From a virus: a stretch of 64,000 nt of DNA. The notes beneath the pieces were generated by a model. It saw only the letters and a list, made by a program, of their open reading frames with translations, was not told the DNA's origin and did no database searches. The translations under genes and the position numbers were made by a program. The stretch is from the IMG/VR virus record IMGVR_UViG_3300027810_000002, positions 32,001-96,000 of that record, one strand, 5' to 3'. Positions 1 through 53,483 of the stretch are shown piece by piece. Every line of letters starts with the position of its first letter. Position 1 is the stretch's first letter.

Positions 1-443
1 CCGCATGTAACTGCGATTAAATAAGAATTATTACCATTGCTAAAGTTTGCTCTACCATCAATAGTACCACCTACTGTAGATCTCATTGTTCCAGAATATC
101 CACCAGCAGCTCCTGTTGAAGATTGTTCAACTTCATTTTTCTTATATTTCTTAATTACCTTAGAAATCTTCTCTGCTAATTGATATGCGTTTCTTCCTTG
201 AAATACATCATAAGAATCTTGTTCGATATCTCCTTGAACATTTAGATGTTCTTTGTAGTTTGGTAATTTACCGGATTTTGCAGATGCTTCCGCTTTTGCT
301 AATACTTTTTCGTATGAACTTCCCCATTTTTCAACAGCGATCTTTGCGATTCTAACTTTATCTTCTAATTTAGCTTTAATACCTTTTTTATCAAAAGATA
401 CTGCTTCATTTATAAAAGATTCAAATAATTTTACTGGTTTCAT
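1..443 (-). CDS. Putative capsid-internal protein with capsid-targeting-like N-terminus (3' end beyond window)
   Basis: Not in the ORF track. Hand translation from ATG at 443 gives MKPVKLFESFINEAVSFDKKGIKAK..., open to the window edge. Confidence 0.75.
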   Translation of the reverse strand, partial: MKPVKLFESFINEAVSFDKKGIKAKLEDKVRIAKIAVEKWGSSYEKVLAKAEASAKSGKLPNYKEHLNVQGDIEQDSYDVFQGRNAYQLAEKISKVIKKYKKNEVEQSSTGAAGGYSGTMRSTVGGTIDGRANFSNGNNSYLIAVTC

Positions 444-460
444 TGTTTTTATATTTTAAT

Positions 461-1306
461 TTATGATATGTCCATTGCGTCATCATGATCACATACAATA
501 CCTTTTTTAGCTATTTGTTTACATAAAGCATCTAGCTCATCAGTTTCGTATGTTGATGGAACTTTATCTGTTATTTTAATAGATTTTAGAAAGGCTTGTA
601 CTTCGTCTAATCCGAATTTAACCCTATGACCTACATTTGATGTTTTTGCAACATCATATAAATACGCTCCATAAAATCTACCACGCTGTTCTGTGTATGT
701 AAAATTAATTCCTTTAACTCTGAAAGGTTCGTTTTGAGCAGATATTGCCTTTGCTTCGCTTACGAATTGTTCAAATAATTGTACGTGTTTCATTGTATAT
801 TCACTTTTTTCTATTTTATTATATATCTCACTCATACTCAACATATCTTTAATACTATTGATAAATGCATCAGCAGGAACCCTATGACCTCCGTCATATA
901 CTGTATGATTAAAAGATACTTTATTGTCTTTAAAGTATTTTCTTACTTCTTTTCCGCTAACGACTGAATCGCTCTTGCCAAATCTTATTTCTATTTTAGT
1001 CTTTTTTAAATCAGAATCATCTACGACTGGATCGAATGTTCTACCAACCATTGCTGGATTAAATAACAACACTGGGATTGAAAGCTTGCTTCCAATTAAA
1101 TAAGAAACATATCCTCCCATTGAAGATCCTACAATAAGATCTGGATTTAATGATTTAATATCTTTGTATAATTTATCAAAAGTACTATCATCTCTATAGT
1201 TTATTGATGGCATATAAGCCTTGTCAAAGTTTTCATTTAAAAATATAATCTTTGGGTCTTTTTGATCAATACTAGATTCTAAACCATGTAAATACGCTAT
1301 CTTCAT
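461..1306 (-). CDS. YqiA/UPF0227-like alpha/beta hydrolase fused in frame to a tagged C-terminal domain (internal start at 793)
   Basis: YLHG oxyanion motif, GSSMGG nucleophile elbow, D (GKSD) and GGH catalytic residues. Internal MKHVQLFEQFVSE at nt 793. Confidence 0.8.
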   Translation of the reverse strand: MKIAYLHGLESSIDQKDPKIIFLNENFDKAYMPSINYRDDSTFDKLYKDIKSLNPDLIVGSSMGGYVSYLIGSKLSIPVLLFNPAMVGRTFDPVVDDSDLKKTKIEIRFGKSDSVVSGKEVRKYFKDNKVSFNHTVYDGGHRVPADAFINSIKDMLSMSEIYNKIEKSEYTMKHVQLFEQFVSEAKAISAQNEPFRVKGINFTYTEQRGRFYGAYLYDVAKTSNVGHRVKFGLDEVQAFLKSIKITDKVPSTYETDELDALCKQIAKKGIVCDHDDAMDIS

Positions 1307-1319
1307 CTTTATCTTTATC

Positions 1320-1344
1320 TTATTTGTTATATGTAAATATAAAC
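1320..1344 (-). promoter_or_regulatory. Early/host-RNAP-type promoter (TATATTTA -7-like element)
   Basis: 25 bp identical to 58948-58972. Resembles the Bacteroidota TAnnTTTG -7 box. Confidence 0.6.
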
Positions 1345-1391
1345 AAAAAAAATGACATAAAAAAATATTATGCCACTTATTTTGATTTATT

Positions 1392-1985
1392 TTAAGTTTT
1401 AGGTCTTCCTAATAATATCTTATCGTGCATTTTGCCTCCAAGTTTTCTAGAATACCAGCCATTTCCAGGTGATCCTTCTTTTAAACCTATCCAATCTACT
1501 TTTTTACCTAATACCTTTTCAACAGTTTCTAGATCTGAAACTAAAGGTACATTATATGAATCTAATAAGATCTCTGCGATCCTACCTGAAACTTCAATGT
1601 AAAAACCTAACTTATTAAGATCTCTTCCTCTAGCAGCGATGTATTCTCTTTTTGCTGCGGAAGTACCATCATGACCTACTCCTGAATATTTTACTCCGAA
1701 TTTGGTTTTTTTACCAAACATTATCATATCGAAATCTTCATCTCCGTGAAGGTCTAGACCTTCCCAATAATTCCAATCTGGATCTCCAAAAACATCGTCT
1801 GGCGATTTAATCTTTGCATGTCCACCTATTACAGAATATGCAGTAGATATTAACTCAAAGAATTCCCCAGCAAGCTCTGGATATTTTTTATGGTTAAACT
1901 TAGTAATTTTACCTCTCTTAGGTTTAATTAATTCACCACTAGTTTTTTCATTGATAAATTCTTCGTATAACTTTATATGTCTCAT
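1392..1985 (-). CDS. Hypothetical protein with capsid-targeting-like tag (start revised from 2006 to 1985)
   Basis: MRHIKLYEEFINE at 1985. The longer start overlaps the terminator hairpin. Confidence 0.7.
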   Translation of the reverse strand: MRHIKLYEEFINEKTSGELIKPKRGKITKFNHKKYPELAGEFFELISTAYSVIGGHAKIKSPDDVFGDPDWNYWEGLDLHGDEDFDMIMFGKKTKFGVKYSGVGHDGTSAAKREYIAARGRDLNKLGFYIEVSGRIAEILLDSYNVPLVSDLETVEKVLGKKVDWIGLKEGSPGNGWYSRKLGGKMHDKILLGRPKT

Positions 1986-1998
1986 CTTGATATATTGT

Positions 1999-2032
1999 AA
2001 AAGCATGACCTTGAAAAATCTAGGCCATGCTT
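1999..2032 (-). terminator. Rho-independent terminator
   Basis: Minus strand AAGCATGGCCT-loop-AGGTCATGCTTTT directly after the 2042-4282 stop. Confidence 0.75.
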
Positions 2033-2041
2033 AACTTATTT

Positions 2042-4282
2042 TTATCCTAATGAAGATGTTAACATCCCAACGGCTGCTCCGTAATCTCCATCAGATTTTG
2101 ATAAGATTCCGTCTACAATTTCTTGTCCTTTAGCTTCGTCAAAATCATCTCCGAATGCTTTCTTTAAAATCGTGAATGCATATTCTTGAAATTCTTCGTC
2201 AGATTTAATTTCTGCTTCGTTAACTACTGATTCTTTAATACCGAATTCTTTAGCTAACATAGTTTGTACGTCTCCAACGTTTGCACCAGATATTTCCATA
2301 CCTTCCGTGTCGTTTGCTGCGAAATCTTCAGGTTGAGCGTATACAAATTTAAGTAATAAATCTTCGACGTCGTTTATGTCTTTTTTATTTTTATTGTAAA
2401 CATCTTTTAATTCTTTCATAGTAACTGAAAGACCTAAGGCACCGTGCTCATCAGAATCAATATCTAATTGAAATAATTCTTTAGCTTCGTTAACTACTGA
2501 TTCTTTAACAAATATTGCTTCTTTATCACTATATCCAGGTTCTAATGAAAGTCCGTGTTTTTTCATTAATGATTTATATTTATCAACGTTATTAATAAAT
2601 TCAATAGCAACGTCATCCATATCGCTTGGATCTGTATTTAGAAATCCTGTATAATCATCGTGTTTTTTATCAAATTGATAGTCTTTAGAAATCATTGCTA
2701 AGAACGCATTAACTTCTGATTTACCTTCAGTAACTACTGCTTCATTGTATAAATGAACATAGTTGCTTCCTTTTTTAGAATAAACTGATTCGATTTTAAA
2801 AGATCCGTCATTTTTACCGGCGTAATGTGCTCTAAAGAATAAATTATTATCAAGCTCTCCAAAGAAATGAGATAGTTTACCGATAAAGAATTCAGCGTTT
2901 GGATAAAGCTCTAAAACTTCTTCTTTTGTTTTCGCGTTTAAAACATCTCTATTAAAATCTTTTACGAATTTAGCTTCAGTAACTACTGATTCAAATGCTG
3001 GAACTAATCCTGAACCTTGGTAAAGATCTGCCATCATCCATTTTTTAGATTTTTCATCCCATAAGTATACGAATTCTGCTCCACCGTCTCTATCTGCGTC
3101 TTTTAAATAATTATCTATATTTTTAATAGATCCGGTAGTGTTTGCAGTACCGTCATTATAAAAGTTGATTTTAGAAATATCTGTAGATAAACCGCTATTA
3201 GCTCCTTTGCTAAGTACATCGTCTACATTTTTACCGTTTTTAAAAGATTTCTTAATAATTGGTAACATGTTGTCTGGGTAAGAATCATAATGAGTATATA
3301 CTGAAGTAATATTTCCAGCCTTGTCTATTTTACCAAATTGACCTCTTGTTCCTTCGTTAAGAACCGTAGATTCATTAACTGTTACTGGGTACATTTTACC
3401 GTTAAATTCAAATTCTTCTAAATCTTCTTCAATCGCTTTAGCTCTTGCTCCTAAAAATGCATTACGCTCTTCTAGTTTAGTAGTTTCATCAGTAACTGTA
3501 ATTAGTTCAACTTCATTTGATTCGTTTAGTTTAGAATCTAAATCAATTCTAACATCTTCTCCTTCGAATGCTTGGTTAAACTGATTGACTGCAGCTTGTC
3601 CCATTCCTTCTTGTTTAATCTGCTCTAAGTAAAGTGCAGTTCCTTCAACAATTCCTTGACCTCCCCAGCCAGCAGCATTTGCTATGTCTGAATAATATTT
3701 GTCTAATATAGTTTTAATTGTTGCAGGTCCAATTTTAATAAAGTGACCTCCTAATCCGGCCATTTTAATTTCTAAAGGTTTAATGTTTCCTTTAATCATT
3801 TTAGAAACTGGTAGTGCTTCTCTATGGAAGTTTGCATCAACCATCGCTTCGTGCATTAAATACTTAATACATCCTAAAATAGATTCACTAGACATTGCTC
3901 CTAAATCTACTAATACTTTGTTAAATATTTTATTATATACAGTTACAACTTTCTTAGCGTCTCTTTTACCTTCAACTTTAATAGCTTCAGTAATTTCTTC
4001 AACTTCTTCTTCATCACTAACAACAGGCACATCATCTTCTGATTCTGAATTATCTGATTCTTCTTCAGAAATTTCTCCAAATAATTGTGAAATTATAGCT
4101 GTTTTTTGTTCTTCGTCTAATCCTTCTAGTGAAGTGATTTCCATTGAATCTAATATAGATGCAATTTTTGTGGATAGTTCTTCTCTTTTAGTGTTGTTTT
4201 CTACTGCTAACTTAATTGTTGCTTCATGTGCTAACACATCTGAGAAAGACTTAAAAGATTTGATTTTATTCATTTCTGCCAT
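2042..4282 (-). CDS. Acidic modular (poly)protein, putative capsid-internal precursor
   Basis: 746 aa. N-terminal KIKSFKSF. Repeated ESVVNEA/ESVVTEA/EAVVTEG/ESTVLNEG linkers separate unrelated modules. Confidence 0.7.
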   Translation of the reverse strand: MAEMNKIKSFKSFSDVLAHEATIKLAVENNTKREELSTKIASILDSMEITSLEGLDEEQKTAIISQLFGEISEEESDNSESEDDVPVVSDEEEVEEITEAIKVEGKRDAKKVVTVYNKIFNKVLVDLGAMSSESILGCIKYLMHEAMVDANFHREALPVSKMIKGNIKPLEIKMAGLGGHFIKIGPATIKTILDKYYSDIANAAGWGGQGIVEGTALYLEQIKQEGMGQAAVNQFNQAFEGEDVRIDLDSKLNESNEVELITVTDETTKLEERNAFLGARAKAIEEDLEEFEFNGKMYPVTVNESTVLNEGTRGQFGKIDKAGNITSVYTHYDSYPDNMLPIIKKSFKNGKNVDDVLSKGANSGLSTDISKINFYNDGTANTTGSIKNIDNYLKDADRDGGAEFVYLWDEKSKKWMMADLYQGSGLVPAFESVVTEAKFVKDFNRDVLNAKTKEEVLELYPNAEFFIGKLSHFFGELDNNLFFRAHYAGKNDGSFKIESVYSKKGSNYVHLYNEAVVTEGKSEVNAFLAMISKDYQFDKKHDDYTGFLNTDPSDMDDVAIEFINNVDKYKSLMKKHGLSLEPGYSDKEAIFVKESVVNEAKELFQLDIDSDEHGALGLSVTMKELKDVYNKNKKDINDVEDLLLKFVYAQPEDFAANDTEGMEISGANVGDVQTMLAKEFGIKESVVNEAEIKSDEEFQEYAFTILKKAFGDDFDEAKGQEIVDGILSKSDGDYGAAVGMLTSSLG
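2214..3374 (-). repeat. Dispersed ~21-25 bp linker repeats inside the polyprotein gene
   Basis: gcttcgttaactactgattctttaa is identical at 2214-2238 and 2484-2508. Variants at 2724-2744, 2973-2993 and 3351-3374. Confidence 0.85.
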
Positions 4283-4316
4283 TTTATTAAATTTATTTTA
4301 TGTTTTACTTGTTTAA

Positions 4317-4324
4317 TATATATC
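4317..4324 (-). promoter_or_regulatory. Putative late promoter GATATATA (representative of ~16 copies)
   Basis: Same motif sits upstream of structural and internal-protein genes; coordinates are listed in the findings. Confidence 0.65.
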
Positions 4325-5824
4325 TCATTCAAAAGAGACTCTTTTAATATTATAATCAAACTTCTCTTGTTTGTATATTGATTGCCTTGCTTTTCCGTGT
4401 TTCCATAGATAATTATCCCACTCCTGTGTTCTAATATTATCTACAAAATCTACTATTAATACCTTGTCCTTTGACTCATGTTGTCTTAAACCACGTCCAA
4501 TTGACTGTCTTATTATTACCTCCGACTTGAACGATTCAGTAAAGAATATACTATGGATTTTTTTAATGGATATACCTGTTGAAAACGTACCATAACTCGC
4601 GACAATAACGACTTCATCGCCTGCTTCCATTTTTTTCTTATACTCTTCTCTAATATCTTTATCTGTCCCACCATCAACATAAAAAACTCTTTTGCTGCTT
4701 TCCTGTCTAAGCTTTTCATATAACCTTTTACCATGTTCAATCCTGTGGAAAAGAACAAGGGAATTCCGGGGTACTCTACTAATAACACTTGAAACAAAGT
4801 CAAGGCGAGCCTCGCTAGTAATGACAAAGTTTTGTTCAAGCGAAAATACATCTTTTCTATCATATTTATTTTGTGCTAATTCTTGGAATGCAAGTCTTTG
4901 CTTATCTGTTGCATAATTCATTTCAATTACCTTAACTACGCATTTTGCGATATGCCCTTGGTTTTGTAAAAAGTTTGCCTTGACTTCGCTAATAACTGGG
5001 CCAGTCTGGCTCATTAATGTTAACTTGTCCAATGTTCCTTCTTTAGGAATTGTTCCAGACAAACCAAATTTGTATTGTGCACTAGTACATTTCTGTAAAA
5101 TTGTCTTTATTGAATTACTCTTTGCTTTATGTGTTTCATCAACAAGTACTGCATCGAACTGTGCAAAGTATTCAGCGTTCTTTTTTACTAACGACTGATA
5201 CGTTCCAATAATAATATTTTTATTTGATTTGATTTTTTGACCTGCAAAGATTTGTTGAATCTTTAACGGTACTTTATTCATGTAATTATAGTCATGAAAA
5301 TCTTCGTGTGCCTGTAATACTAATGAAACATTAGGTACAATCATTAAGATTTTTTCAGCCTTTCCTTTTTCTAACATATATGCTATAGTTAGGAAACTGA
5401 TCAGTGTCTTACCTGCGGACGTAGCAAGCTCCGCTAGACACTTTCTAAATTTAAGTATATTATATGCTGTTTCAATTTGATAATCTCTAGGTGTAATCTC
5501 AGCTCCTTTAAAAAAGTCAAGTGCCCATTTTTCAAATGTCTCTGCATTTATATTAGGATCTATTAAACGTTTGATTCCGTTCATTTCAATCTCTAAATTA
5601 TAGTCTTTGCATATTTGTAAAACATGACGCCATAATCCGGCTGGAATCCATTTGTCATCTTTTATATAAGATACATATCCATCCCAAACTCCTCGCTTTA
5701 CTAACGGGTTAAATCTCCAGCTCTCGATTCTTTTCGTGAGGGAGATTGTAATTTGTTCTAATTCAAGTTCAGTTGCATCATCAATTCTTAAGAACTGATT
5801 ATCATCTGTTAATGTGAGTATCAA
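4325..5824 (-). CDS. uvsW: UvsW-like SF2 DNA helicase
   Basis: PRDYQ Q-motif, ATSAGKT Walker A, DETH, GLSGT, QSIGRGLR. Adjacent to a UvsY-like gene as in T4. Confidence 0.9.
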   Translation of the reverse strand: MILTLTDDNQFLRIDDATELELEQITISLTKRIESWRFNPLVKRGVWDGYVSYIKDDKWIPAGLWRHVLQICKDYNLEIEMNGIKRLIDPNINAETFEKWALDFFKGAEITPRDYQIETAYNILKFRKCLAELATSAGKTLISFLTIAYMLEKGKAEKILMIVPNVSLVLQAHEDFHDYNYMNKVPLKIQQIFAGQKIKSNKNIIIGTYQSLVKKNAEYFAQFDAVLVDETHKAKSNSIKTILQKCTSAQYKFGLSGTIPKEGTLDKLTLMSQTGPVISEVKANFLQNQGHIAKCVVKVIEMNYATDKQRLAFQELAQNKYDRKDVFSLEQNFVITSEARLDFVSSVISRVPRNSLVLFHRIEHGKRLYEKLRQESSKRVFYVDGGTDKDIREEYKKKMEAGDEVVIVASYGTFSTGISIKKIHSIFFTESFKSEVIIRQSIGRGLRQHESKDKVLIVDFVDNIRTQEWDNYLWKHGKARQSIYKQEKFDYNIKRVSFE

Positions 5825-5842
5825 TATTCATAATACTATTTT

Positions 5843-6274
5843 TTATAACTTAGACATGTCTAGGCGATTCTTTATTGCAAAGCCCATATTGTCTAAGGTT
5901 TTCACAGTGCCTTCAAAAAAGGCTTTCTGTGATTCTAGTAATTCTAGCAGTTGATTGTCTTCTGCTAAATCTGCTAGTAAAAACTTTTCACGTTGTTTGT
6001 CTGTTAGTTTATAATCATAACTATAATACTCAATCCACTTTGTTTTATATTTCTGGTCAACTGTGGTTTTTTGGGAGCGTATTCTAATCGACATTGACGT
6101 TAAGCTTTCAATTAATATCTGTCTATAACTTAAAGAGTAAGAGCTAACTTGTTCTAAATTATTACCTAATTTTAAATCTTCAGTTAGTGCTTTGATTTTA
6201 TCTGTCCATTCTAATCTCTGCTTTCCTAGATATTCATCTAGTTTTAGTATTTTACTTTTTAAGTCTGTTGCCAT
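5843..6274 (-). CDS. uvsY: UvsY-like recombination mediator
   Basis: 143 aa helical protein ending LDNMGFAIKNRLD. Size and synteny with uvsW. Confidence 0.65.
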   Translation of the reverse strand: MATDLKSKILKLDEYLGKQRLEWTDKIKALTEDLKLGNNLEQVSSYSLSYRQILIESLTSMSIRIRSQKTTVDQKYKTKWIEYYSYDYKLTDKQREKFLLADLAEDNQLLELLESQKAFFEGTVKTLDNMGFAIKNRLDMSKL

Positions 6275-6284
6275 TTATTGTATT

Positions 6285-6506
6285 TTAAAATAATTGGTTT
6301 TTGTTAGTTTTAAAATTCTTTATATACACTGTCGTGTTAATTTTCTTTTTTAATTTCGGATCAGATATTACCATGTTCTTTTCATTATAATTAATAATTG
6401 AACTACTAAAGCTAATTAATTCTTTAATATTTTTTCTACGGTTTTTATCTTCTTCGAATTCTAAGAATTCCTCATCGATCATATCGATTACATTATTTTT
6501 TATCAT
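6285..6506 (-). CDS. Hypothetical protein
   Basis: 73 aa ORF overlapping the primase stop by 4 bp. Confidence 0.5.
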   Translation of the reverse strand: MIKNNVIDMIDEEFLEFEEDKNRRKNIKELISFSSSIINYNEKNMVISDPKLKKKINTTVYIKNFKTNKNQLF

Positions 6507-7630
6507 AGGTAAAATGCATCTAGTTTTGAGTTACTAAAATACTTTGAAAGATCTTTAATACAGTTATCTTTTAAATAATATGCAACTCTAACCAGGTCAT
6601 TTAAATCACCTAATTCTTTAGGATATTTATCTCTGTTATTTTTGTCAATAGATTCCAACCATTTATCATACCTTAAGTCTAATCTGGTGTCATCTAAAAA
6701 CTTAGTCCACATAAATATCTCTTTGCCTCTTCGAAGCTTTTCCATCATCTTCTTTTTACCAGTAACATCATTGTCAAACATATAACGTATTGTAGGTATC
6801 TCATCAAACTCATCAGTAGATCTACCTGCAGTTGCTAGTCCAATACTATTTTGCATAAACATTGCATCAATAGGTCCTTCAAACATCGTTACCTGTCTTT
6901 GTAAATCAACTAATAAAACTCCGAATAGGGTTGATATTTTCTTTAGACTTATTAATTCATCTATAGAAACTCCCATATCCTTTTTCATTTCCTGATATAT
7001 TTTTTCAATATCATAAGTCAGATATCTAGCACTTTTATGTTTTGATAGGGCTCTAGTTTGAAATCCAATAACTTTACCGTTTGGCGCTAAATTAAGAACT
7101 ACCATCCTACGATCTTTAGGAGAATACATAAAGTTTTCTAACTTATGAGATAACATTCTACCTCTTAAATAGAAATAACCAGGATCTCCTGCTTCAATTT
7201 CTTTAAATCCAAAAGTGGCTTTAAGTTCATCTCTGGTTGGTGCTAAATCATATATCTTTTTAAATACATCATGTTCTAAGACTTCAACTGTTGATGCTGT
7301 TATCTTATGTTCTTGTATAAAATCAATAACTTTAATAGAATCTTCTCTATCCTGAAATCCAATGTGATGATCTTTTAATAAGCTATAAACGTCGCCGTGT
7401 TGGCTACAGTTAAAACAGTGATATTGTAAACTATCCCAATATATACTGCCTCTTTTCTTATAAGTATCATCGTGGCTGTCTCCGCAATAAGGGCATGCCA
7501 GGCTTAAACGGCCTGGCATTTCCTTAAGCATCCTTTTATTAGGGTCAGCATGTTGGGTTGTAACAACCTGTTTTACTAAACTTCTAATTTTAGATTTTAA
7601 TGATTCGTCTATCTTAGATGTCGAGGTCAT
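6503..7630 (-). CDS. DNA primase (T4 gp61-like)
   Basis: CPYCGDS...HCFNC zinc finger, GFQTR, TOPRIM EGPIDAMF and FDND, DLND. Confidence 0.9.
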   Translation of the reverse strand: MTSTSKIDESLKSKIRSLVKQVVTTQHADPNKRMLKEMPGRLSLACPYCGDSHDDTYKKRGSIYWDSLQYHCFNCSQHGDVYSLLKDHHIGFQDREDSIKVIDFIQEHKITASTVEVLEHDVFKKIYDLAPTRDELKATFGFKEIEAGDPGYFYLRGRMLSHKLENFMYSPKDRRMVVLNLAPNGKVIGFQTRALSKHKSARYLTYDIEKIYQEMKKDMGVSIDELISLKKISTLFGVLLVDLQRQVTMFEGPIDAMFMQNSIGLATAGRSTDEFDEIPTIRYMFDNDVTGKKKMMEKLRRGKEIFMWTKFLDDTRLDLRYDKWLESIDKNNRDKYPKELGDLNDLVRVAYYLKDNCIKDLSKYFSNSKLDAFYL

Positions 7631-8590: not shown

Positions 8591-8615
8591 GGTACCTTTA
8601 ATAAACTTTCATGTA

Positions 8616-8641: not shown

Positions 8642-8655
8642 CAAATATAATTAAA

Positions 8656-9571: not shown

Positions 9572-9940
9572 TTATAAAGCTTTACCGATAGCAGCACCTA
9601 AAGCGGCTCCGACTAGTCGTGAGGTTAACATATCATAAAATACTCCTTTTTGAATCCCTAATACTTTGGCAATAGTTTTACCAACGGTTTTACCAAGAGC
9701 AAATCCAGTTAATCCTCCAAATATAGAACCAAACATTCCTTCATTAGTCATTTCATCATTAAAAGATTTAATGTCGTAAGAACCATCTTCTAATTGGTAT
9801 TCTTTCGCAAATTCCTCTAATGCCGCATCAACTTTTTCTTCAAGTTCAGTTGTCCATTCAGATTGTAAAGACTCAGTTAATACACTAAGCTCTTTTTCAG
9901 TTATGTCTTGTTCCTTAATTAATTCTAAAAATGTTTTCAT
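9572..9940 (-). CDS. Small tagged protein with acidic N-half and glycine-zipper cationic C-half
   Basis: MKTFLELIKE start; C-terminal GGLTGFALG...GAALGAAIG. Confidence 0.7.
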   Translation of the reverse strand: MKTFLELIKEQDITEKELSVLTESLQSEWTTELEEKVDAALEEFAKEYQLEDGSYDIKSFNDEMTNEGMFGSIFGGLTGFALGKTVGKTIAKVLGIQKGVFYDMLTSRLVGAALGAAIGKAL

Positions 9941-9953
9941 ATAAGTATATATC

Positions 9954-13378: not shown

Positions 13379-13381
13379 TAT

Positions 13382-23168: not shown

Positions 23169-23232
23169 TCCTGATGCCTCTTTTTAGTTAAATTATATAT
23201 CATAATTTTAAGAGGGACCTGATCGGGTATAT

Positions 23233-41060: not shown

Positions 41061-41088
41061 GATTGTATCGTTTTATAGACTATATATC

Positions 41089-44537: not shown

Positions 44538-44538
44538 T

Positions 44539-45030: not shown

Positions 45031-45031
45031 A

Positions 45032-46780
45032 TTATCCGTTTGAATGTTTTCTTAATTCTTTGTCCTTTGGTGATTTTTGAGTTTTACCATACGCATTGAC
45101 ATCAACCGTTGCGTTAATATCTATTTCATCTGCAGGTTGTATATAGAATCTACCCCTACCTGTGTTAAACATACTTTCAATTTCTGCCTTATCTCTTGGT
45201 CTTGCTGGTTTTAATGTGATTTCAACAACCATTCTCTCTGGAAAATCTTGTAATCCCATAGGTCCTTCAAAATTAATTGAAGTATCTGTACATGCTAGAT
45301 TACCAATAACCACGATTGGGTTTAGTGGGTTACCGATTGTAACATGCCACTGTCCGGTAGGATCACCAGATAATAAAGCAGCAACTGCTTGACCACCTTG
45401 TGGAGAGTTAAACATCTTCATCATACTACCCGACAGTAAATTGTTAAGAGTATCACCAACCCCTTTCATTCCAAAATCTTTTATAGATTTCGTTATATCA
45501 CCCATAGAAGATCCAGTATTGTTACCTGTAAAATCTGAAACTACAGATTTCATAAACCCTCCGTAATCTCCATTTTTTAATAAATCAACATTACCTAATG
45601 GCCTTGCAACAGATCCATCTCCAATATATCTAACGTCTCCACCCCAGAAAGGTGCGTTATTATATGTTAAAGCTAGCATGTTAGCCAATTGATCTAACAT
45701 TAATATTTTTGGATTTGCTCCTCCTAAATCTCTAAGTTCGTATTCAAATTTTAGTTTAAATTCCTGATCAAACTTTAAACCCTGTTCCCTAACTAATGTT
45801 TTCTTAATAACATTAAGCGGACCAAATACGTGATTTGGATATGTATTACTAAATGAATCATAACCGGCACCACCATTATCTAATCTTTCCTGCTGTGCCT
45901 GTGTTCTACCTGATGCAGCGTTACTTGCAGCTTTAAGTACTTTATTATTGTTAATTATACCACCAACTTTACCTGAACTTGCATTATTCTGCGACTGTAC
46001 CGTTTGAACCTCTGCCTCTGCTTCTTTCCAATTAAAACCATGCGAAAATTTCATGATTTCCGCCATAGTATTTCCAGTTGCTTCACTTAACCATGTAACT
46101 GCTCTTGCAATATCAGGCTCTTGTGAGTTTGCTCCTGTTAATCCTAAAGGACTAATGATATCATCAGGCGCAGGGCCTGTAAATCTTCGTAGAGTTATCA
46201 TCATGTTGTTTGGAATTCTACCAAAGTATTTCGCCATAGCAAAATCTGAATATTGATATTTATATCCGTTACTACCACCAGCATCTGTCATTTCGATAAT
46301 TCTAGATGCAGTCGGGTTAATTAAAGTTCTTGGATCTATTTTGTTAAAAAACTTACTTTTATTTGAATCACCCTTACCTCCTTCTCCGAACAACGGAGTA
46401 CCTCTAAAATTAATTAATGAGTATTTATTGAAAAGAGAATATGGTCTTTTACCTAAAGTTATATTGGCGTTACCTTCTCCATCTTTATGTTTATACGAAT
46501 CTACGTCTTGATTGTAAAAAACATCAACATTTCTAGTAGCTCTAGTTTCTTGTGTAATTGCATTAACACTTGCTGCGATGTTTAAACTGGAATCTTCTTC
46601 AATAGAAGATTTTAAAGAGTTTTCATTATTCTTAATTCTTAATTGAGCGTTAACCCCATCAGGGTTTTCAATATCGAATAAGTCGTTAAGTTTATCTTTG
46701 AGTGTACTAACCCCTAGTTCGCTCACTTGCGTGATTGCGTCACTTGAGTTATTTATACCTCCACTAATGTCTAAGCTCAT
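45032..46780 (-). CDS. Putative baseplate/tail-tube junction protein
   Basis: 582 aa, first gene of the hub operon; C-terminal tube-fold-like IGNLACTD...FP....VEITLKP. Confidence 0.5.
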   Translation of the reverse strand: MSLDISGGINNSSDAITQVSELGVSTLKDKLNDLFDIENPDGVNAQLRIKNNENSLKSSIEEDSSLNIAASVNAITQETRATRNVDVFYNQDVDSYKHKDGEGNANITLGKRPYSLFNKYSLINFRGTPLFGEGGKGDSNKSKFFNKIDPRTLINPTASRIIEMTDAGGSNGYKYQYSDFAMAKYFGRIPNNMMITLRRFTGPAPDDIISPLGLTGANSQEPDIARAVTWLSEATGNTMAEIMKFSHGFNWKEAEAEVQTVQSQNNASSGKVGGIINNNKVLKAASNAASGRTQAQQERLDNGGAGYDSFSNTYPNHVFGPLNVIKKTLVREQGLKFDQEFKLKFEYELRDLGGANPKILMLDQLANMLALTYNNAPFWGGDVRYIGDGSVARPLGNVDLLKNGDYGGFMKSVVSDFTGNNTGSSMGDITKSIKDFGMKGVGDTLNNLLSGSMMKMFNSPQGGQAVAALLSGDPTGQWHVTIGNPLNPIVVIGNLACTDTSINFEGPMGLQDFPERMVVEITLKPARPRDKAEIESMFNTGRGRFYIQPADEIDINATVDVNAYGKTQKSPKDKELRKHSNG

Positions 46781-46836
46781 ATATATTATTACTATTGTTT
46801 TTATACGTAGTAAGTATATATATTAAGATTAATCTA

Positions 46837-47427
46837 CTACCCTTTTAAGTTATCGTACTCTGGGCCCATTGGTCGAAATAATAATTTGTTGAAGTATTCT
46901 GGATCTGTAGGCGCGCGATCCCCTAGAAACTTTTTAAGATGTGCCTCGAAGACTCCTTTAGATTCATAATAATATTTACCCTTAGAATAAGAAACCCTTG
47001 AGGACTTTTCATATAGCTCCCTGATCTCTTTTTCAATTAAAAAATCTTGAATATTAAGATAAAGCTTCTGTACTTGGTTAAATGTTTTAGTGCACATCAC
47101 GGAATCTATAGTAATCATATAGGTTTCTGAATTAGCGTCTAAATGTTTTTGAAGTTCTTTTTTATTTTTAATATTAGATCTATTAAATCCAAAGACAGTA
47201 GTTCCTCCATTAAAATTCTTTTCAAATTTCATTCCAAAGAAATATCTTTTAAGAAAATTAATATCATCGTAGAACTTAACTATTCTAACATGATACTTCG
47301 GCATTGTTTCGTCGAATTTTACATCATATATTAATACTCTAACCGGGAAAACAATATTTGAATATCTAGAGTTTGAAATAAGAGCATGGACGTGTTCACC
47401 TTTATTAAATAAGCGATGCCTAATCAT
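46837..47427 (-). CDS. Hypothetical protein
   Basis: 196 aa, overlapping operon. Confidence 0.6.
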   Translation of the reverse strand: MIRHRLFNKGEHVHALISNSRYSNIVFPVRVLIYDVKFDETMPKYHVRIVKFYDDINFLKRYFFGMKFEKNFNGGTTVFGFNRSNIKNKKELQKHLDANSETYMITIDSVMCTKTFNQVQKLYLNIQDFLIEKEIRELYEKSSRVSYSKGKYYYESKGVFEAHLKKFLGDRAPTDPEYFNKLLFRPMGPEYDNLKG

Positions 47428-47842
47428 TGTCTACAAATTTAACGAAGTCGAATTGATTTAATATATTTTTGCTGGGTACTTTATCCATGTTTAATGAATT
47501 AAGAATAAATTCTATTTTCATGTCAGTGTAACTAGCGACCATCTTTTTAAAATTAGATATAACAATAGGATCGAGATCTCTAAATGTATATACTATTGTT
47601 GTGGTTTTTTTCTTTTCAGAATTTATCGTAGTTCTAAATGAATTCATAATATTTAAACCTATCACGGAATCACTAGGTTCGTTACTATATGGATCTGCTT
47701 TAATTAACTTGTTTTTAATAATAGAAAAGTCGATGACCGTCAAATTCGGATCTTCAATAGCCCTTACGAACTTGTTAAAATCTCTTTTCGACTTACACCA
47801 AACACATTCTATCTTTATGTTATCCATTATTAGTTTGTTCAA
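47420..47842 (-). CDS. Hypothetical protein
   Basis: 140 aa; MDNIKI is the likelier start. Confidence 0.6.
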   Translation of the reverse strand: MNKLIMDNIKIECVWCKSKRDFNKFVRAIEDPNLTVIDFSIIKNKLIKADPYSNEPSDSVIGLNIMNSFRTTINSEKKKTTTIVYTFRDLDPIVISNFKKMVASYTDMKIEFILNSLNMDKVPSKNILNQFDFVKFVDND

Positions 47843-48134
47843 GGTTCGATATACTCGCCTTGAGATTCTTTATTTTAAAGGAGATTTCCTTTTCAGTTGG
47901 TTTGTAATTACTTCCCCAATCGCTGTTGATTTGTATTTGACTTTTAGAATTTGAATTACCAAACTCTAATCCCAAATCAATACAGAGTTCTTCGATGAAT
48001 TTTATTTTATTTAAAATAGAATCAAATTCATATACTGTAGTTGATTCGTACTCTTCACCTCCACCGTTTATATTGTCGTCGTAAACTGATTTTATTACGC
48101 CATTATCTGCTAGCGTTATTTTAATTTCCTGCAT
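47820..48134 (-). CDS. Hypothetical protein
   Basis: 104 aa, overlapping operon. Confidence 0.6.
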   Translation of the reverse strand: MQEIKITLADNGVIKSVYDDNINGGGEEYESTTVYEFDSILNKIKFIEELCIDLGLEFGNSNSKSQIQINSDWGSNYKPTEKEISFKIKNLKASISNLEQTNNG

Positions 48135-48504
48135 TTTTTCTACTAGCTAAAGATTGTTGAGCTTCTTTTCTTAATAAGTTTGCCTGTTTTTTGTCGGCTC
48201 TGTAAGTTTCTCTATCTTTAACAGCAGTAAGTGTCCATGCTTCTTCTAGTTTTACGATTTCTTCTGCGTTATATCCAGAAGTAGACCATGTTTCTTTTAA
48301 TTTATTTAGACTTACTATCAACTGCTCTTCAATAGAATCTAATCTTCTTTTTTCATTAGCTGTTTCCATTGATCGACCGTCTTCTGCCATTTTATTGTGC
48401 CATGCAATTCCTTGCTCTGAGAATCTTCCAAACATATTTTTTACTTTTAAAAAACCTGCTTTCTTAAACTCTCCTCTTCTTTGTCTTCTTGATGATGTTG
48501 CCAT
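48121..48504 (-). CDS. Hypothetical basic helical protein
   Basis: 127 aa, SRRQRR N-terminus. Confidence 0.6.
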   Translation of the reverse strand: MATSSRRQRRGEFKKAGFLKVKNMFGRFSEQGIAWHNKMAEDGRSMETANEKRRLDSIEEQLIVSLNKLKETWSTSGYNAEEIVKLEEAWTLTAVKDRETYRADKKQANLLRKEAQQSLASRKNAGN

Positions 48505-48549
48505 TAGTTTCTCGTGTTATGTTGTTAAATATTATTTATCTAAATTATA

Positions 48550-49059
48550 TTAGCTATAGTATTCTGATAAGAAATCAGTAACATTAGCCTTAATGTATTC
48601 TTGTAATTTGCTTATCTCTATTTGCGACATAGCTACTTCTGAAATTTCCTGATTAAGATCTTCTGTTTCCATACCCTCGCCTAACATTGAATAGAGTTGT
48701 GGTGTTGGAATATTAAGATTGATTTGAATAGGAACGTTCACCACGTTTTTCTTGCTCATCTTTAATATCATTTTTCCGAGTACTGAAGGTTCTACTTCAA
48801 TCGGATCTTTTGATACTATAGGCGGGGTCGTAATATTTGCTTTTTCTTTTTTTGATGAAAGTAGAGGGTTCGCTCCTGGAAAAGGTATTTCTCCATTAAT
48901 GACCGGCTCTAGAAATTCTGATAGAACGGTCTTAAATATTCTCTGTCCGTTTGTAAAAATTACAAATTCACCATCCTCAGATTCAACATTAACTATACTC
49001 CCGAAGTTTTCTCCTTTTTTCCACTGATACTGTTTTAAATCACCTTGCACTTCTGTCAT
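48550..49059 (-). CDS. Hypothetical protein
   Basis: 169 aa, downstream of AAAC-N17-TATAA at 49077-49102. Confidence 0.6.
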   Translation of the reverse strand: MTEVQGDLKQYQWKKGENFGSIVNVESEDGEFVIFTNGQRIFKTVLSEFLEPVINGEIPFPGANPLLSSKKEKANITTPPIVSKDPIEVEPSVLGKMILKMSKKNVVNVPIQINLNIPTPQLYSMLGEGMETEDLNQEISEVAMSQIEISKLQEYIKANVTDFLSEYYS

Positions 49060-49100
49060 TTTAAATTATTTAATAGTTATACTAAAAAAATCTATTTTGT

Positions 49101-49280
49101 TTATTTTAAAGCACCTGCATGATCCTCTGCGAACTCTTCAATATAGTTTATTGATTCACTAGGGCCTATCACTGCGTCAGGGCTCGTTATGTATATTTTA
49201 TAAAAGAAAGAGTCACCTAACTCGATTCTTTTTCTTTTTAAATCTTCTAATTTTGGTAGATATCTTTTATTGAATCCCAT
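49101..49280 (-). CDS. Small hypothetical protein (59 aa, absent from ORF track)
   Basis: MGFNKRYLPKLEDLKRKRIELGDSFFYKIYITSPDAVIGPSESINYIEEFAEDHAGALK*. Fills the gap and overlaps the deaminase stop. Confidence 0.65.
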   Translation of the reverse strand: MGFNKRYLPKLEDLKRKRIELGDSFFYKIYITSPDAVIGPSESINYIEEFAEDHAGALK

Positions 49281-49692
49281 TCCACGTATTTACTTGTTTA
49301 ACTTCAATTCCTGCGGTTTCTAAGAGATCAACTCCGCTCATATCTCTGTATTCTTCAGTATAATATACCATTTTAATCCCGGCTTGTATAATCAATTTAG
49401 CACATCCAAAACATGGACATGTTGTTGTGTATAGCTCAGCGCCAACGCAACTCATAGTCGATTTTGCAACTTTCATAATTGCATTTGATTCTGCGTGTAA
49501 AACTGCGGGGTTTGTTACATTACCATCTTCACATGTATTATCAAAGCCATGTGGCATACCATTATAACCGAATGAAATTACTTGATGATCTTTTACAATG
49601 ACACACCCTACTTTACGTCTTTCTGCGTAACTAAGTTGAGCAAACTGATATGCGGTTTGCATGTATACTAATTCTATTGGTATTCTTGGCAT
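49267..49692 (-). CDS. dCMP deaminase
   Basis: KVGCVIV, GYNG, HAESNAI, PCFGCAKLIIQAGI. Confidence 0.92.
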   Translation of the reverse strand: MPRIPIELVYMQTAYQFAQLSYAERRKVGCVIVKDHQVISFGYNGMPHGFDNTCEDGNVTNPAVLHAESNAIMKVAKSTMSCVGAELYTTTCPCFGCAKLIIQAGIKMVYYTEEYRDMSGVDLLETAGIEVKQVNTWNGIQ

Positions 49693-49740
49693 ATTATTAT
49701 ATTATAATATTTATACCAATTAGTCGGGTATTGTTTACAA

Positions 49741-49767
49741 AAAAAGCCCGGATTTCTCCAGGCTTTT
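49741..49767 (-). terminator. Rho-independent terminator
   Basis: AAAAGCC-GGA...TCC-GGCTTTT hairpin with T-run on the minus strand. Confidence 0.75.
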
Positions 49768-49789
49768 AGTTTTATATTTAAAAAATGAA

Positions 49790-50731
49790 TTACTCTACAT
49801 GAGTAGCGTCGTCAGCTAATTCAGATTCTTTCATTTCATTAATTTTAGTAGTATATGATTCGATCATTGAATTACAAGCTGCTTCATATGCTTCAGTTGA
49901 ATAATCTTCTTTCATTTCTTTAAGAGATCCAGCTGCTAATGTTGCAACTAACGCTGCGTTTTCAGCCATGTAAGATTCTACAGTGTGAGAGTCATGTGCG
50001 TCTTCTTCCCATACTTTAGCTTCGTTTTTACAAGATTCATAAACTTCTTTTAACATCGATGCTACTGCGATTGCAGCTGCAGGATTTTCGTTTACTTCTT
50101 CTTCAGATTCTTCCTCTTCTTCAACTTTAACTTCTTCAGATTCTTCAACCTTATAAGTTTTTCCGTCAAATTCAAATTCTTTATCTCCAGCTTCTTTGGC
50201 TTTTCTAACTGCGTCTCCAAAAGCATTACCTTCTTCAACTTCTTCAACTTCTTCTTCTTCAACCTTAACTTCTTTAGATTCTTCAACCTCTTCAGATTCT
50301 TCAACTTTAAAAGTTTCACCGTCAAATTCAAATTCAGTTTCACCAGCTTCTTTAGCTTTTCTAACTGCATCTCCAAAAGCATTACCTTCTTCAATTGCTT
50401 TAACTTTAACTGTAAATGTCTCTTCTGATTCTTCGATGTACTCTGCTAAGTCAGCATCGTCCCATCCATATTGAGAATCTGCTAATACTGTTTCAAGATC
50501 TTCTTTTTTCCCTGTTAGTTCAACTTCTGGAAATCCTGAAGGACCGTTTTGGTCGATAACTTCCATAGAAACTTTGTTTTTCTTAAGTAATTTTACAAGA
50601 CCTTTTGATTTTGGGTCAACTGCATCCATTATAACAGAAGCTTCCTGAACTTCTAGATTGTTGATTTCTTCTTGATTGGCGGTAGCTTGCTTTTCAGCAA
50701 CATACTGCTCAAACGATTTTAATTTAGCCAT
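49790..50731 (-). CDS. Highly acidic tagged protein with internal duplication (putative capsid-internal/core protein)
   Basis: MAKLKSFEQYVAE; duplicated EEGNAFGDAVRKAKEAG..EFEFDG; many VEE/VNE sites. Confidence 0.7.
   Translation of the reverse strand: MAKLKSFEQYVAEKQATANQEEINNLEVQEASVIMDAVDPKSKGLVKLLKKNKVSMEVIDQNGPSGFPEVELTGKKEDLETVLADSQYGWDDADLAEYIEESEETFTVKVKAIEEGNAFGDAVRKAKEAGETEFEFDGETFKVEESEEVEESKEVKVEEEEVEEVEEGNAFGDAVRKAKEAGDKEFEFDGKTYKVEESEEVKVEEEEESEEEVNENPAAAIAVASMLKEVYESCKNEAKVWEEDAHDSHTVESYMAENAALVATLAAGSLKEMKEDYSTEAYEAACNSMIESYTTKINEMKESELADDATHVE
50163..50394 (-). repeat. Two ~76 bp direct repeats 156 bp apart
   Basis: 50163-50238 versus 50319-50394, near-identical. Confidence 0.85.
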
Positions 50732-50780
50732 AATATAATTTATTTTATTGTTTTTTATTATTAATCTATATATCTATGAA

Positions 50781-51812
50781 TTAAATGATAGTTTCTTTAC
50801 CATCAATAATGTCCTGATAGTTAACTCGACCCTTAGATCTTTTAATTTGATCTTCATTTTCTTCTAAGTTTATTTTATAAATAGGTCTAATATACTCTTC
50901 ATTTAAATACGTCTTGAACTCCTGTGTTAGTTGTTCTTTATAAAAATCCTCGTATACCGCAACATAAACTCTAGCCATTTTATCTGCTGCCATTCCTGAA
51001 GCTGAATTGATCTCAGCAACCCAACATTCACCAGATTTATCTACCATTAAATCAATTGACCAAAGCCCAAGCTTTAATTTTTCTCTAACAGTTTTGCAGA
51101 TATCAGTTATTTTATCCATAAAATCTAATTTACTCACATCTTGATCGACGTATGTAAATTCAGTTTTTTCATCTGATTTTTTATCTTTAATTTCATTCTC
51201 AGTCGCTGATACTCTTTCATGAACTAATATTACAGTATCATTTACTAATAAAATTCTAAATTCAGTATCTAGATCTTTAGCTTCTGAATAGTTTTGAAAT
51301 TCTCCTTTACTTTTTTCTAAGTCTTCATAAGAATCGAAAATCTCAATACCCATTCCGGAGTGTCCATCATCTGGTTTTGCAATTACAGGAAATTCTAAAT
51401 CTTTTGTATCTTCTTTTTTATACACAGCCTTTGGTATAAAATCTGAATCTTGAAACATTTTATAAAAGTCAGTTTTATTACCAGCAATCTTCATAGCTTC
51501 TGGTACATTGTACATAACGTCCTCTGACATATTATACTTCTCTAAAAAATCTAAGCCTTCTTTTGTATTTCCACCATAATAAATAAGAGGTAGCTTTGAG
51601 TTGACTTCTAAATCCTTTCCATAATCTCCCTTTGCATAAAAAGCATTGTATAATTCTTTTAAACAAATTTCATTTACTTCGCCATATATACTGTTGTCTG
51701 TGCCGGTAAGGCCTCTTACCTTTTCTCCCGCCAATATAAAATTAACTTTTTTTAGATAATCTTTATTAGATTTTTCAAATAGAAATCTCTCGAATAGTTT
51801 GACTCTTTTCAT
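50781..51812 (-). CDS. ATP-grasp ligase (RimK-like) with capsid-targeting-like tag
   Basis: MKRVKLFERFLFE; FPVIAKPDDGHSGMGI, EFRI, IDL, EINS. Confidence 0.8.
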   Translation of the reverse strand: MKRVKLFERFLFEKSNKDYLKKVNFILAGEKVRGLTGTDNSIYGEVNEICLKELYNAFYAKGDYGKDLEVNSKLPLIYYGGNTKEGLDFLEKYNMSEDVMYNVPEAMKIAGNKTDFYKMFQDSDFIPKAVYKKEDTKDLEFPVIAKPDDGHSGMGIEIFDSYEDLEKSKGEFQNYSEAKDLDTEFRILLVNDTVILVHERVSATENEIKDKKSDEKTEFTYVDQDVSKLDFMDKITDICKTVREKLKLGLWSIDLMVDKSGECWVAEINSASGMAADKMARVYVAVYEDFYKEQLTQEFKTYLNEEYIRPIYKINLEENEDQIKRSKGRVNYQDIIDGKETII

Positions 51813-51826
51813 GCTAGCTTCTTTAT

Positions 51827-52174
51827 TTATACCTTATATATCTTAATTTTAAGATTCGTTGTTCCCGGTAGTATTCTATGAATAACCCCAGTTGGTATTT
51901 TTATATCTACACCAACTATCAGCGGAGTTGGTAATTCATTGTCATATTGAAATCTCCAGTCGGAATCTTCTAATACTTCAATAACCCTATCTTCAGGGTC
52001 GCTGTGCCATTTATATAAGTGTTCTGGATAACTTGGATCGAATGTTCTTATAATATAATCATCATACTGCTCTTCAACGAAGGGCTTGGTTTGATCATCT
52101 ATGTTGGATATCAATTCCTCCATTGACATACTACCGCATTTACAAGATTTACATTTACAATCTTTATCTACCAT
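51827..52174 (-). CDS. Cupin-like protein with N-terminal Cys cluster (start revised to 52174)
   Basis: MVDKDCKCKSCKCG; WHSDPEDR...IP.GVIHRI. Confidence 0.65.
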   Translation of the reverse strand: MVDKDCKCKSCKCGSMSMEELISNIDDQTKPFVEEQYDDYIIRTFDPSYPEHLYKWHSDPEDRVIEVLEDSDWRFQYDNELPTPLIVGVDIKIPTGVIHRILPGTTNLKIKIYKV

Positions 52175-52707
52175 GGCTGATCTGATTTTAAACCTAATTG
52201 TTTTCCAAAAAGAGTTGGTCCATAACATGCCCAGAATCCGGCTTTCATTGGATCCATCTTTGCGGCTTTATCACAACCGTGTCGAGCCCAAAAACTAGCA
52301 GATTTTCCAGGATCATCGTTTTTAACTGTAAGGTTTGGATCTCCCCATTCTACCTTTTTTGCTAATACGTTCCCTTCTTTGTCTTTTCTACCTCCGTCTC
52401 TATATACTATAAACTTCTTACCTCCACCTCGTTCTGGTGAATCTAATTTAACTTTAATTGTCTTTCCTCCGCGTGGAGTATAAAGAGCAGGCTTACCTAC
52501 ATCTAGATTTTTAGCCATCCAGCCTGAAGGTCCTTTTAGAACAATGTTGTTTTTGTCCCAGTATTCTTTAACCTCTTCAAATAGTTTAGAATAAGCATCG
52601 CTACCTAATCTAAAGAATGAATTAGTTAAATTTAAATCTTCTTCAATATGTGCCTTTAATTCTGGTGAAACCTTTTCCCAAGCTTCAAATGTTTTTATAA
52701 ATTTCAT
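52168..52707 (-). CDS. Conserved phage protein with capsid-targeting-like tag
   Basis: MKFIKTFEAWE; KKVEWGDP...SFWARHGC...AGFWAC. Confidence 0.7.
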   Translation of the reverse strand: MKFIKTFEAWEKVSPELKAHIEEDLNLTNSFFRLGSDAYSKLFEEVKEYWDKNNIVLKGPSGWMAKNLDVGKPALYTPRGGKTIKVKLDSPERGGGKKFIVYRDGGRKDKEGNVLAKKVEWGDPNLTVKNDDPGKSASFWARHGCDKAAKMDPMKAGFWACYGPTLFGKQLGLKSDQPW

Positions 52708-52711
52708 ATTT

Positions 52712-53017
52712 CTATTTTTCCATGTTATCGATTAGATCCTGTCGATCTAATTGTTTATAAACTTCCTTACGAACTTTTTCCATTTTCTCAGCGTACTTTG
52801 GATCGTCATTGCGATTAAATACAACTTGTTGAGTTAGTGAACCACTGATCTTCTTAACATCACCTTTACGAGTCTTTATTAACCATGCTGCTAAATCTTT
52901 AATACCTAAGTCTTTAAATCTACCCTCAGCTTCAGGTGCATCTGACTTGTTAAAATCGGGAGCTCCTGCTGGTTTTTTCTCTGTAATGAATTGTTCGAAT
53001 AACTTTATAAATTTCAC
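52712..53017 (-). CDS. Hypothetical tagged protein (GTG start revised to 53017)
   Basis: (V/M)KFIKLFEQFITE begins 1 nt after the upstream stop. Confidence 0.65.
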   Translation of the reverse strand: MKFIKLFEQFITEKKPAGAPDFNKSDAPEAEGRFKDLGIKDLAAWLIKTRKGDVKKISGSLTQQVVFNRNDDPKYAEKMEKVRKEVYKQLDRQDLIDNMEK

Positions 53018-53018
53018 G

Positions 53019-53483
53019 TTAATCTTCTTTTGATTTAAATGGTAGCTTTTTATCGTGACCTCCGTCTCTAACTTCTTTAGCAACGTCTTTGTCAGCACCT
53101 CCCCAAGTTCCTTTTCCTTTTTCTAAGAATGCATTTATTCTAGCGTATCCCCATCCTTCTTGCGTCATACCTGGATGGTGTCCACCATTCCAAGCGTCCA
53201 TTCCACGTCTCATTATGATTCTCAATAAGGGTACAGGTACTCCACTTTCTTTTGATTTGTTCTTGATTCCGGTTTCTACAGCCTTACCTTTAAGTGGTCC
53301 TCTATCTCCTTTAGCTTTTTCTGCTTCATTAACAGATTCTCCTAGAACTGGAGTATTATCATAACCGCATTCGTGACATATATAAGGTTCTTTTCCACCC
53401 TCATCTAATCTCCAAGACCAATCGCAGTTATTGCACGATACTGAATTTGCTGAAAATTCTTCAAATAATTTAACGTGTTTCAT
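53019..53483 (-). CDS. Tagged two-module protein: Zn ribbon, ESVNEA linker, conserved helical phage domain
   Basis: MKHVKLFEEF; CNNC...CHEC; GESVNEAE; RRGMDAW..GHHPG...WGYARINAF. Confidence 0.7.
   Translation of the reverse strand: MKHVKLFEEFSANSVSCNNCDWSWRLDEGGKEPYICHECGYDNTPVLGESVNEAEKAKGDRGPLKGKAVETGIKNKSKESGVPVPLLRIIMRRGMDAWNGGHHPGMTQEGWGYARINAFLEKGKGTWGGADKDVAKEVRDGGHDKKLPFKSKED

Follow-up and report, generated by a model that had tools for sequence, protein, structure and literature searches.

A short N-terminal tag resembling the T4 capsid-targeting sequence on unrelated proteins of an uncultured, probably Bacteroidota-infecting phage

The stretch of DNA analysed here (the window, 64,000 nucleotides) corresponds to bases 32001-96000 of one linear IMG/VR virus contig of 175,162 bases, IMGVR_UViG_3300027810_000002, in which a set of otherwise unrelated proteins begins with one and the same kind of short peptide, hereafter the tag. 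The contig has a CheckV completeness of 66% and a GC content of ~32%, and its minus strand holds nearly all genes. It encodes T4-type replication and tail genes, a gp2-like DNA end protector, a gp4-like head-closure protein and a gp55-like late sigma factor (genome 2051-2425; positions marked "genome" are those of the contig or record, all others those of the window). The capsid proteins of close relatives are nearest to those of a 462-kb uncultured phage, of Prevotella Lak megaphages and of Tenacibaculum jumbo phages. This fits a jumbo phage of Bacteroidota, with a marine member of that group as the probable host. Two relatives are used throughout: G001, a complete but distant genome of 256 kb with terminal repeats, whose end-protector protein is 49% identical to that of the contig, and L015, a close relative with a 93% identical portal.

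A recurrent peptide at unrelated starts

The first-pass annotation had listed ten tagged N-termini, and all of them were found where it placed them, on the minus strand, with strong tags at starts 443, 793, 1985, 51812, 53017 (a GTG start) and 53483 and intermediate ones at 52707 and 50731. It had described two clusters and an isolated gene. Both clusters are present, but the first one runs 8.4 kb past the left edge of the window, to genome 23561. With this extension the contig as a whole bears ~12 clear and 5-6 degenerate tags (~17 genes).

A strict regular expression applied to the six frames of the 175-kb contig gave 11 matches, 10 of them directly after a start codon. To avoid circularity, we trained a position matrix only on the tags of G001 and scanned the contig with it: 11 matches reached 24 bits or more, every one of them after an ATG or GTG, and the next best scored 15 bits. 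In the reciprocal scan, a matrix built from the contig's tags found 21 matches of at least 21 bits in G001, all N-terminal. More than 120 IMG/VR stretches contain the tag's exact DNA pattern, and of 134 independent matches in 119 other IMG/VR loci, 122 stand right behind a start codon. Neither a tag match nor a shared N-terminal word was found in Tenacibaculum phage PTm1, a jumbo phage that is AT-rich and has the same type of head, so base composition is not the source of the signal.

As the first-pass annotation had proposed, the bodies of the proteins behind the tag show no BLASTP similarity to each other at E <0.01, and no tail or baseplate protein bears a tag. The DNA upstream of the tags is unrelated among genes, and synonymous codons vary among tags while residues are kept and substitutions are conservative; selection therefore acts on the peptide.

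We examined the anatomy of 24 tags from two genomes. The consensus spans 13 residues, M-K-H-[I/V]-K-L-F-E-[Q/E]-F-[I/V/L]-N-E, with A, K, G or S as the next residue. All 24 tags have Glu8 and Glu13, and 23 have Leu6. Phe or Tyr occupies positions 7 and 10, 23 tags have Ile, Val or Leu at position 11, and Ala, Lys, Gly or Ser prevails at position 14. Among 20 aligned orthologues of the 197-residue protein starting at 1985, the tag is the most variable stretch, and its pattern is nonetheless kept. Three of these orthologues have insertions inside the tag, yet the I/L-x-E end still directly abuts the conserved body; this suggests a tag built of two parts, of which K-L-F-E-x-F is amphipathic and [I/V/L]-x-E forms the terminal site.

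The best comparison for such a peptide is the capsid-targeting sequence (CTS) of phage T4, M-K-T-Y-Q-E-F-I-A-E, which is removed by the prohead protease and brings foreign proteins into the head (PMC8442874). All head-internal proteins of T4 associate with the scaffolding core by means of a CTS (PMC5694885), and in the diverse set of T-even internal proteins this is the sole common sequence (PMC3012670). Scored with the tag matrix, the T4 core KTYQEFIAE reaches 10.9 bits, a value attained by 6e-5 of background 9-residue windows. Cleavage by the T4 protease gp21 falls behind a Glu, ITE-6 and LTE-619 of Alt being examples (PMC5694885), and T4 gp22, gp23 and gp24 show the sites IAE, LTE and LRE. 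The end of the tag follows, at the sequence level, the same gp21-type pattern, [L/I]-x-E and then the mature protein.

Tagged genes, linkers and a promoter-like box

The part of the first cluster that lies in the window starts, at its left edge, with a strongly tagged gene (3-443; like all tagged genes described here, on the minus strand) that scores 27.7 bits and encodes 216 residues, its 3' end lying beyond the left edge of the window. Next to it, the start proposed at 793 proved to be more complex: the tag is strong (34 bits) but lies in frame inside a longer open reading frame (ORF, 461-1306), in which a UPF0227-type esterase domain lacks a stop codon of its own and reads into the full tag and a 97-residue module. 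A copy of GATATATA lies at 820-827, within this ORF and 27 nucleotides upstream of the internal ATG at 793. The esterase-tag fusion is kept in four relatives, where the downstream module differs. With the fusion conserved and a box inside the ORF, the tag may also work internally, or one frame may yield two products.

The 197-residue protein (1392-1985) has a strong tag and 271 close homologues, which are all tagged within the aligned sample. Its AlphaFold model has low confidence (predicted local distance difference test score, pLDDT, of 61), and its Foldseek matches are weak and uniformly GNAT acetyltransferases, so that the protein is probably a GNAT acetyltransferase; the protein atlas offered no usable lead for it.

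The cluster continues with a 746-residue polyprotein (2042-4282), preceded by GATATATA at 4317-4324, which joins a degenerate tag to five internal linkers that look like tag ends. These linkers follow a motif, E-[S/A/T]-x-V-x-E-[A/G], that is almost confined to tagged genes: this protein has five copies, a tagged 1008-residue protein to the left of the window has four, and two smaller tagged proteins have one each. In the 746-residue protein the linkers read E-S-V-V-x-E and then A or G, with the Glu codons at 3353-3355, 2975-2977, 2726-2728, 2486-2488 and 2216-2218. Both polyproteins are clearly modular, but Pfam recognised no domain in either. Residues 311-420 of the shorter one, part of its module 311-436, match a stand-alone phage family (phrog_1987), and modules of both occur as separate genes in other contigs. 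The most telling case is the last module (module 5) of the 1008-residue protein. It follows a linker, and it aligns with two stand-alone tagged proteins in which the homology starts right after the N-terminal tag (...N-E and then A-F-x-S-x-K-L). The same module is thus preceded by a linker in one context and by a tag in the other, and from these alignments the tag end and the linker are interchangeable before the same predicted mature module, as a shared processing site predicts.

Between the clusters stands a doubtful member, a 122-residue protein with a Gly-zipper-like tail (9572-9940) whose N-terminus falls below the matrix threshold; GATATATA is found at 9946-9953. This peptide is nearer to the T4 CTS, with which it is identical at 6 of 10 positions, than to the lineage tag. 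The N-terminus of the G001 orthologue is less similar.

The second cluster holds five tagged genes. A very acidic 313-residue protein (49790-50731; intermediate tag, 14 bits; GATATATA at 50767-50774) has modules in common with a polyprotein of G001. It is followed by an ATP-grasp ligase of 343 residues (50781-51812; 24.9 bits; GATATATA at 51835-51842), whose G001 orthologue is likewise tagged, and by a 179-residue protein (52168-52707) that has the first half of the tag and an atypical [I/V/L]-x-E end. An untagged Cys-rich ORF of 133 residues (C-x-C-x2-C-x-C; 51827-52228, minus strand) sits in the middle of this cluster. Then come a basic protein of 101 residues with a GTG start (52712-53017; 31.7 bits) and a 154-residue protein (53019-53483; GATATATA at 53509-53516) in which the tag is followed by a CxxC...CxxC ribbon, an internal linker (Glu codon at 53325-53327) and a DUF5824 domain. 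This DUF5824 matches the C-terminal part of the phage 'cytidyltransferase' family phrog_3041, and the N-terminal part of the same family matches a tagged protein of the first cluster, left of the window, that has 629 residues and a cytidylyltransferase-like domain (genome 27231-29120). One ancestral protein appears, from these matches, to have been split over two tagged genes.

Taken together, the tagged proteins range from pI (isoelectric point) 4.2 to 9.3 and from 100 to 1008 residues, and they include enzymes. Those of G001 add an Acb1-like 2H phosphoesterase, a P-loop kinase, a GNAT protein and an R2K-type ATP-grasp protein. Judged by their families, the tagged enzymes fit a role in host takeover or counter-defence.

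Tag-like peptides also occur 13-17 residues before the C-terminus of two proteins without an N-terminal tag, one at genome 13530-13976 of the contig (18 kb left of the window), where the next gene opens with a half tag, M-K-H-V-K-D-L, and one at 80041-80487 of G001. By analogy, these peptides may be C-terminal propeptides, as in T4 Alt, or else decayed gene junctions. Elsewhere in the window, three small neighbouring proteins on the minus strand (56884-57216, 57433-57687 and 58669-58938), which flank genes for a DnaJ-like (57680-58471) and a PhoH-like (56150-56866) protein, have a common C-terminal [L/I]-E-E-Y-E-K-C that resembles a UVR-type helical hairpin.

An ATATATA box, often in the form GATATATA, lies 11-45 nucleotides upstream of the tagged operons and of genes for tail, baseplate, neck and fibre proteins, and not before replication genes. 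The whole contig has 24 copies of GATATATA on the coding strand against a single one on the other. The first-pass annotation had placed the tagged starts mostly behind this promoter, and GATATATA does directly precede six of the ten; the other four are probably co-transcribed. Further copies in the window lie at 23194-23201 and 41081-41088. Given this distribution and the gp55-like sigma factor, and by analogy with the late promoter of T4, the box looks like the late promoter of the lineage and a candidate target for that sigma factor.

Head genes and turnover among relatives

The contig's left end falls inside the portal gene: genome 2-949 (minus strand) encodes the first 316 portal residues, 93% identical to those of L015. 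Profile searches of the contig found neither the prohead protease (PF03420) nor the capsid protein (PF07068), and PHROGs scans of large ORFs elsewhere on it gave no head genes. Protease, scaffold and capsid genes are absent because the assembly ends within the portal gene, and we therefore turned to relatives. In L015 the portal gene is followed by a perfectly tagged protein of 213 residues, by a gene (12946-15030 of L015) whose 694-residue product fuses an S77 protease to a repeat-rich scaffold, and by a Gp23-type capsid gene; G001 has the same gene order from portal to capsid. The slot of the tagged gene, between portal and protease, is that of the T4 core genes 67 and 68.

Sites of the same kind recur on the head proteins themselves. 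The capsid proteins of three relatives begin with M-x-x-L-I-N-E and then A or S, the protease domain ends at the protease-scaffold junction with R-V-N-E and then A or S, and the scaffold repeats end in [L/I/V]-A-E and then K or S, by eye nearer to the T4 CTS than to the tag. Tags and T4-type heads also occur together. A Gp23-type gene was found in 19 of 26 larger tag-bearing IMG/VR contigs, among them all 13 of at least 100 kb and all three that are at least 90% complete, and the seven without one are fragments rated 20-34% complete. Further away, the 462-kb uncultured phage (LR756500.1; locus L076 and record positions 11.7-14.3 kb), whose capsid protein is 52% identical, has at least nine genes that start with a variant tag, M-K-Y-I-K-E-Y-E-E-F. 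Four of these form one cluster, and no tagged gene lies between its portal and protease.

The repertoire of tagged genes differs strongly between genomes. Four large tagged proteins are syntenic between the contig and G001, and most small tagged genes are not common to the two. The content of the tag island differs even between relatives whose flanking genes are 94-96% identical, so by these comparisons the island turns over fast.

Proposed capsid targeting and its alternatives

The first-pass annotation had read the tag as a T4-type capsid-targeting signal, and our data support this reading through the likeness to the T4 CTS, the invariant [I/V/L]-x-E end and the equivalence of tag and linker. 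The tagged gene in the head module of a relative, the co-occurrence with T4-type head genes, the late-promoter-like boxes and the fast turnover fit it as well. We therefore regard it as likely that the peptide serves for capsid targeting and processing as in T4, and that in this lineage such tagging has spread to roughly 7% of genes and to polyproteins as well.

By this reading, the docking of tagged proteins to the scaffold, their cleavage, their retention in the head and their injection, all of which we infer, would proceed in four steps. Tagged genes would be transcribed late, alongside virion genes. The amphipathic-looking K-L-F-E-x-F half of the tag would then dock each protein on the prohead scaffolding core, the scaffold being fused to the protease in this lineage. 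After closure of the shell, a T4-type prohead protease (gp21, S77 family) would cut behind the Glu of [I/V/L]-x-E, removing the tag and splitting the two polyproteins at internal copies of the same site. The mature proteins would remain in the head, enter the host with the DNA and act before phage gene expression; this cargo would comprise an ATP-grasp ligase, a probable GNAT and a nucleotidyltransferase, to which relatives would add an Acb1-like phosphoesterase and a P-loop kinase.

A bolder version can be put forward tentatively, at somewhat less than even odds in our estimation: tag and linker copy would be one grammar read by a single prohead protease, by which huge marine Bacteroidota phages would pack the products of ~7-8% of their genes as single proteins or as polyproteins cut in the head, a fast-evolving set with ready-made counter-defence enzymes such as the Acb1-like phosphoesterase.

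Several observations weigh against capsid targeting. The contig itself lacks protease, scaffold and capsid genes, and the link to them rests on relatives. The likeness between tag and scaffold repeats is modest (two windows of at least 5 bits against 0.17 expected), and the tripeptide [I/V/L]-x-E is by itself common. The match to the lineage tag is only loose for two of the ten listed members (starts 4282 and 9940), and a few tags are internal or near a C-terminus. The tag was not found in PTm1 and pT24, which have the same head type, and thus it is not required by such heads. No cultured phage was found to bear it either: tblastn with a 20-residue tag query against 50,697 phage records returned one uncultured record only. 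Finally, many tagged proteins are acidic, unlike the highly basic internal proteins of T4, and some may be parts of the prohead core that are degraded and not delivered.

This last point leads to the sole serious alternative, which has the targeting step in common with the reading above: the tag would direct proteins to the prohead core, where most of them would be core or assembly parts, cut up and expelled like T4 gp67, gp68 and gp22. One tagged gene does lie exactly in the gp67/gp68 slot, many tagged proteins are acidic like T4 gp67, and the polyproteins have many cut sites. However, several tagged enzymes (the ATP-grasp, GNAT-like and Acb1-like proteins and the kinase) look domain-intact and free of internal sites, and the fast turnover of small genes between close relatives suits conflict genes better than assembly parts. 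We consider a set made up mostly of core components unlikely. Docking on some other partner, be it the tail or baseplate lumen, a chaperone or a host structure, seems more improbable still. The second cluster and the gene at 9940 do adjoin tail and baseplate genes, but the tag specifically resembles the T4 CTS, its protease-type end recurs at capsid, scaffold and linker positions, and a tagged gene lies within the head module while tail and baseplate proteins go untagged.

Two further explanations were considered. The peptide could be a leader for a modifying enzyme, such as the conserved R2K-type ATP-grasp ligase acting on the invariant Glu, in the manner of a ribosomally synthesised and post-translationally modified peptide (RiPP). 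An ATP-grasp ligase is indeed conserved in the contig and in G001, and the R2K-clade ATP-grasp family belongs to the tagged set of G001; yet the ligase carries the tag itself, and homologous modules preceded by either tag or linker point to processing sites, which leaves a leader function very improbable. The shared start could also stem from a repeated DNA cassette, such as a module for recombination or translation initiation, with no function for the peptide. T4-type phages do shuffle genes through short regulatory cassettes, and the tagged start codons lie in AT-rich, A-rich contexts. However, the peptide is kept between genomes whose end protectors are only 49% identical, and the motif recurs within ORFs as a linker. 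With upstream DNA unconserved and residues kept across differing synonymous codons, we rejected this reading as close to refuted, the least credible of those considered.

Capsid targeting being the preferred reading, the closest known system is that of the T4 CTS proteins, in which a short N-terminal peptide likewise stands on otherwise unrelated proteins, ends in [I/L/V]-x-E and marks a gene set that varies between relatives. The core sequences are similar (K-L-F-E-Q-F-V-N-E here, K-T-Y-Q-E-F-I-A-E in T4) and, as read from relatives, the lineage has a gp21-type protease, a scaffold and a Gp23-type capsid protein like T4. In contrast, the tag has 13 residues instead of 10, with an extra M-K-H-[I/V] in front, it occurs on ~17 to 25 genes per genome and not on a handful, and protease and scaffold form one fused gene. 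The cargo differs too. T4 internal proteins are small and have been described as highly basic (PMC8442874), whereas the tagged proteins include enzymes, polyproteins of 750-1000 residues and many acidic members; they do not conform to a small and highly basic type, and we found no sequence homology to T4 IPI, IPII or IPIII beyond the tag. An enzyme in the head is nevertheless familiar from the T4 ADP-ribosyltransferase Alt, which is packaged, injected and trimmed by gp21 at both ends (PMC5694885, PMC5512222). Alt combines ITE/LTE-type trimming with immediate action on the host, as would the proposed cargo here; no ADP-ribosyltransferase was found among the tagged proteins, their enzymes being ATP-grasp, GNAT-like and nucleotidyltransferase proteins and, in a relative, the Acb1-like phosphoesterase and the kinase.

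Giant phages of the phiKZ/SPN3US type have many head-internal proteins that are cut after Glu by a gp21-related protease, and their paralogues have common N-terminal propeptides that hold multiple cut sites (PMC5694885, PMC10052503). These phages use an S80-family protease and A/S/G-x-E motifs, in contrast to the S77 protease and [I/V/L]-x-E of this lineage, and their propeptides are long and specific to paralogue groups, unlike one short tag on unrelated proteins. A third parallel is offered by the polyvalent proteins of phages and conjugative elements, which carry several effector modules per polypeptide, with two to fifteen recognisable conflict-related domains, and for which packaging and delivery along with the DNA are predicted (Iyer et al. 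2017, PMC5512222). There, as here, modules also exist as solo genes; only here does a repeated linker of protease type, equivalent to the N-terminal tag, stand between them, and Pfam detected no signature polyvalent-protein domains.

The principle is known from T4, and what is new is its scale, its grammar and its lineage. A full-text literature search on the tag motifs gave no relevant paper, the literature on capsid targeting in jumbo phages yielded no account of such an expansion, and no published description was found of the 13-residue tag or of the tag/linker grammar. Should the tag function as the T4 CTS does, a reading of N-termini and linkers would yield a list of what these uncultured jumbo phages deliver at the first moment of infection, and would offer a direct route to new host-takeover and anti-defence enzymes. 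Head cargo could then number dozens of species and take the form of polyproteins that the head protease cuts, and the engineering of Bacteroidota phages could use the tag as a portable handle for packaging. If the grammar also holds, the injected protein set of hundreds of uncultured phages would become predictable from sequence alone.

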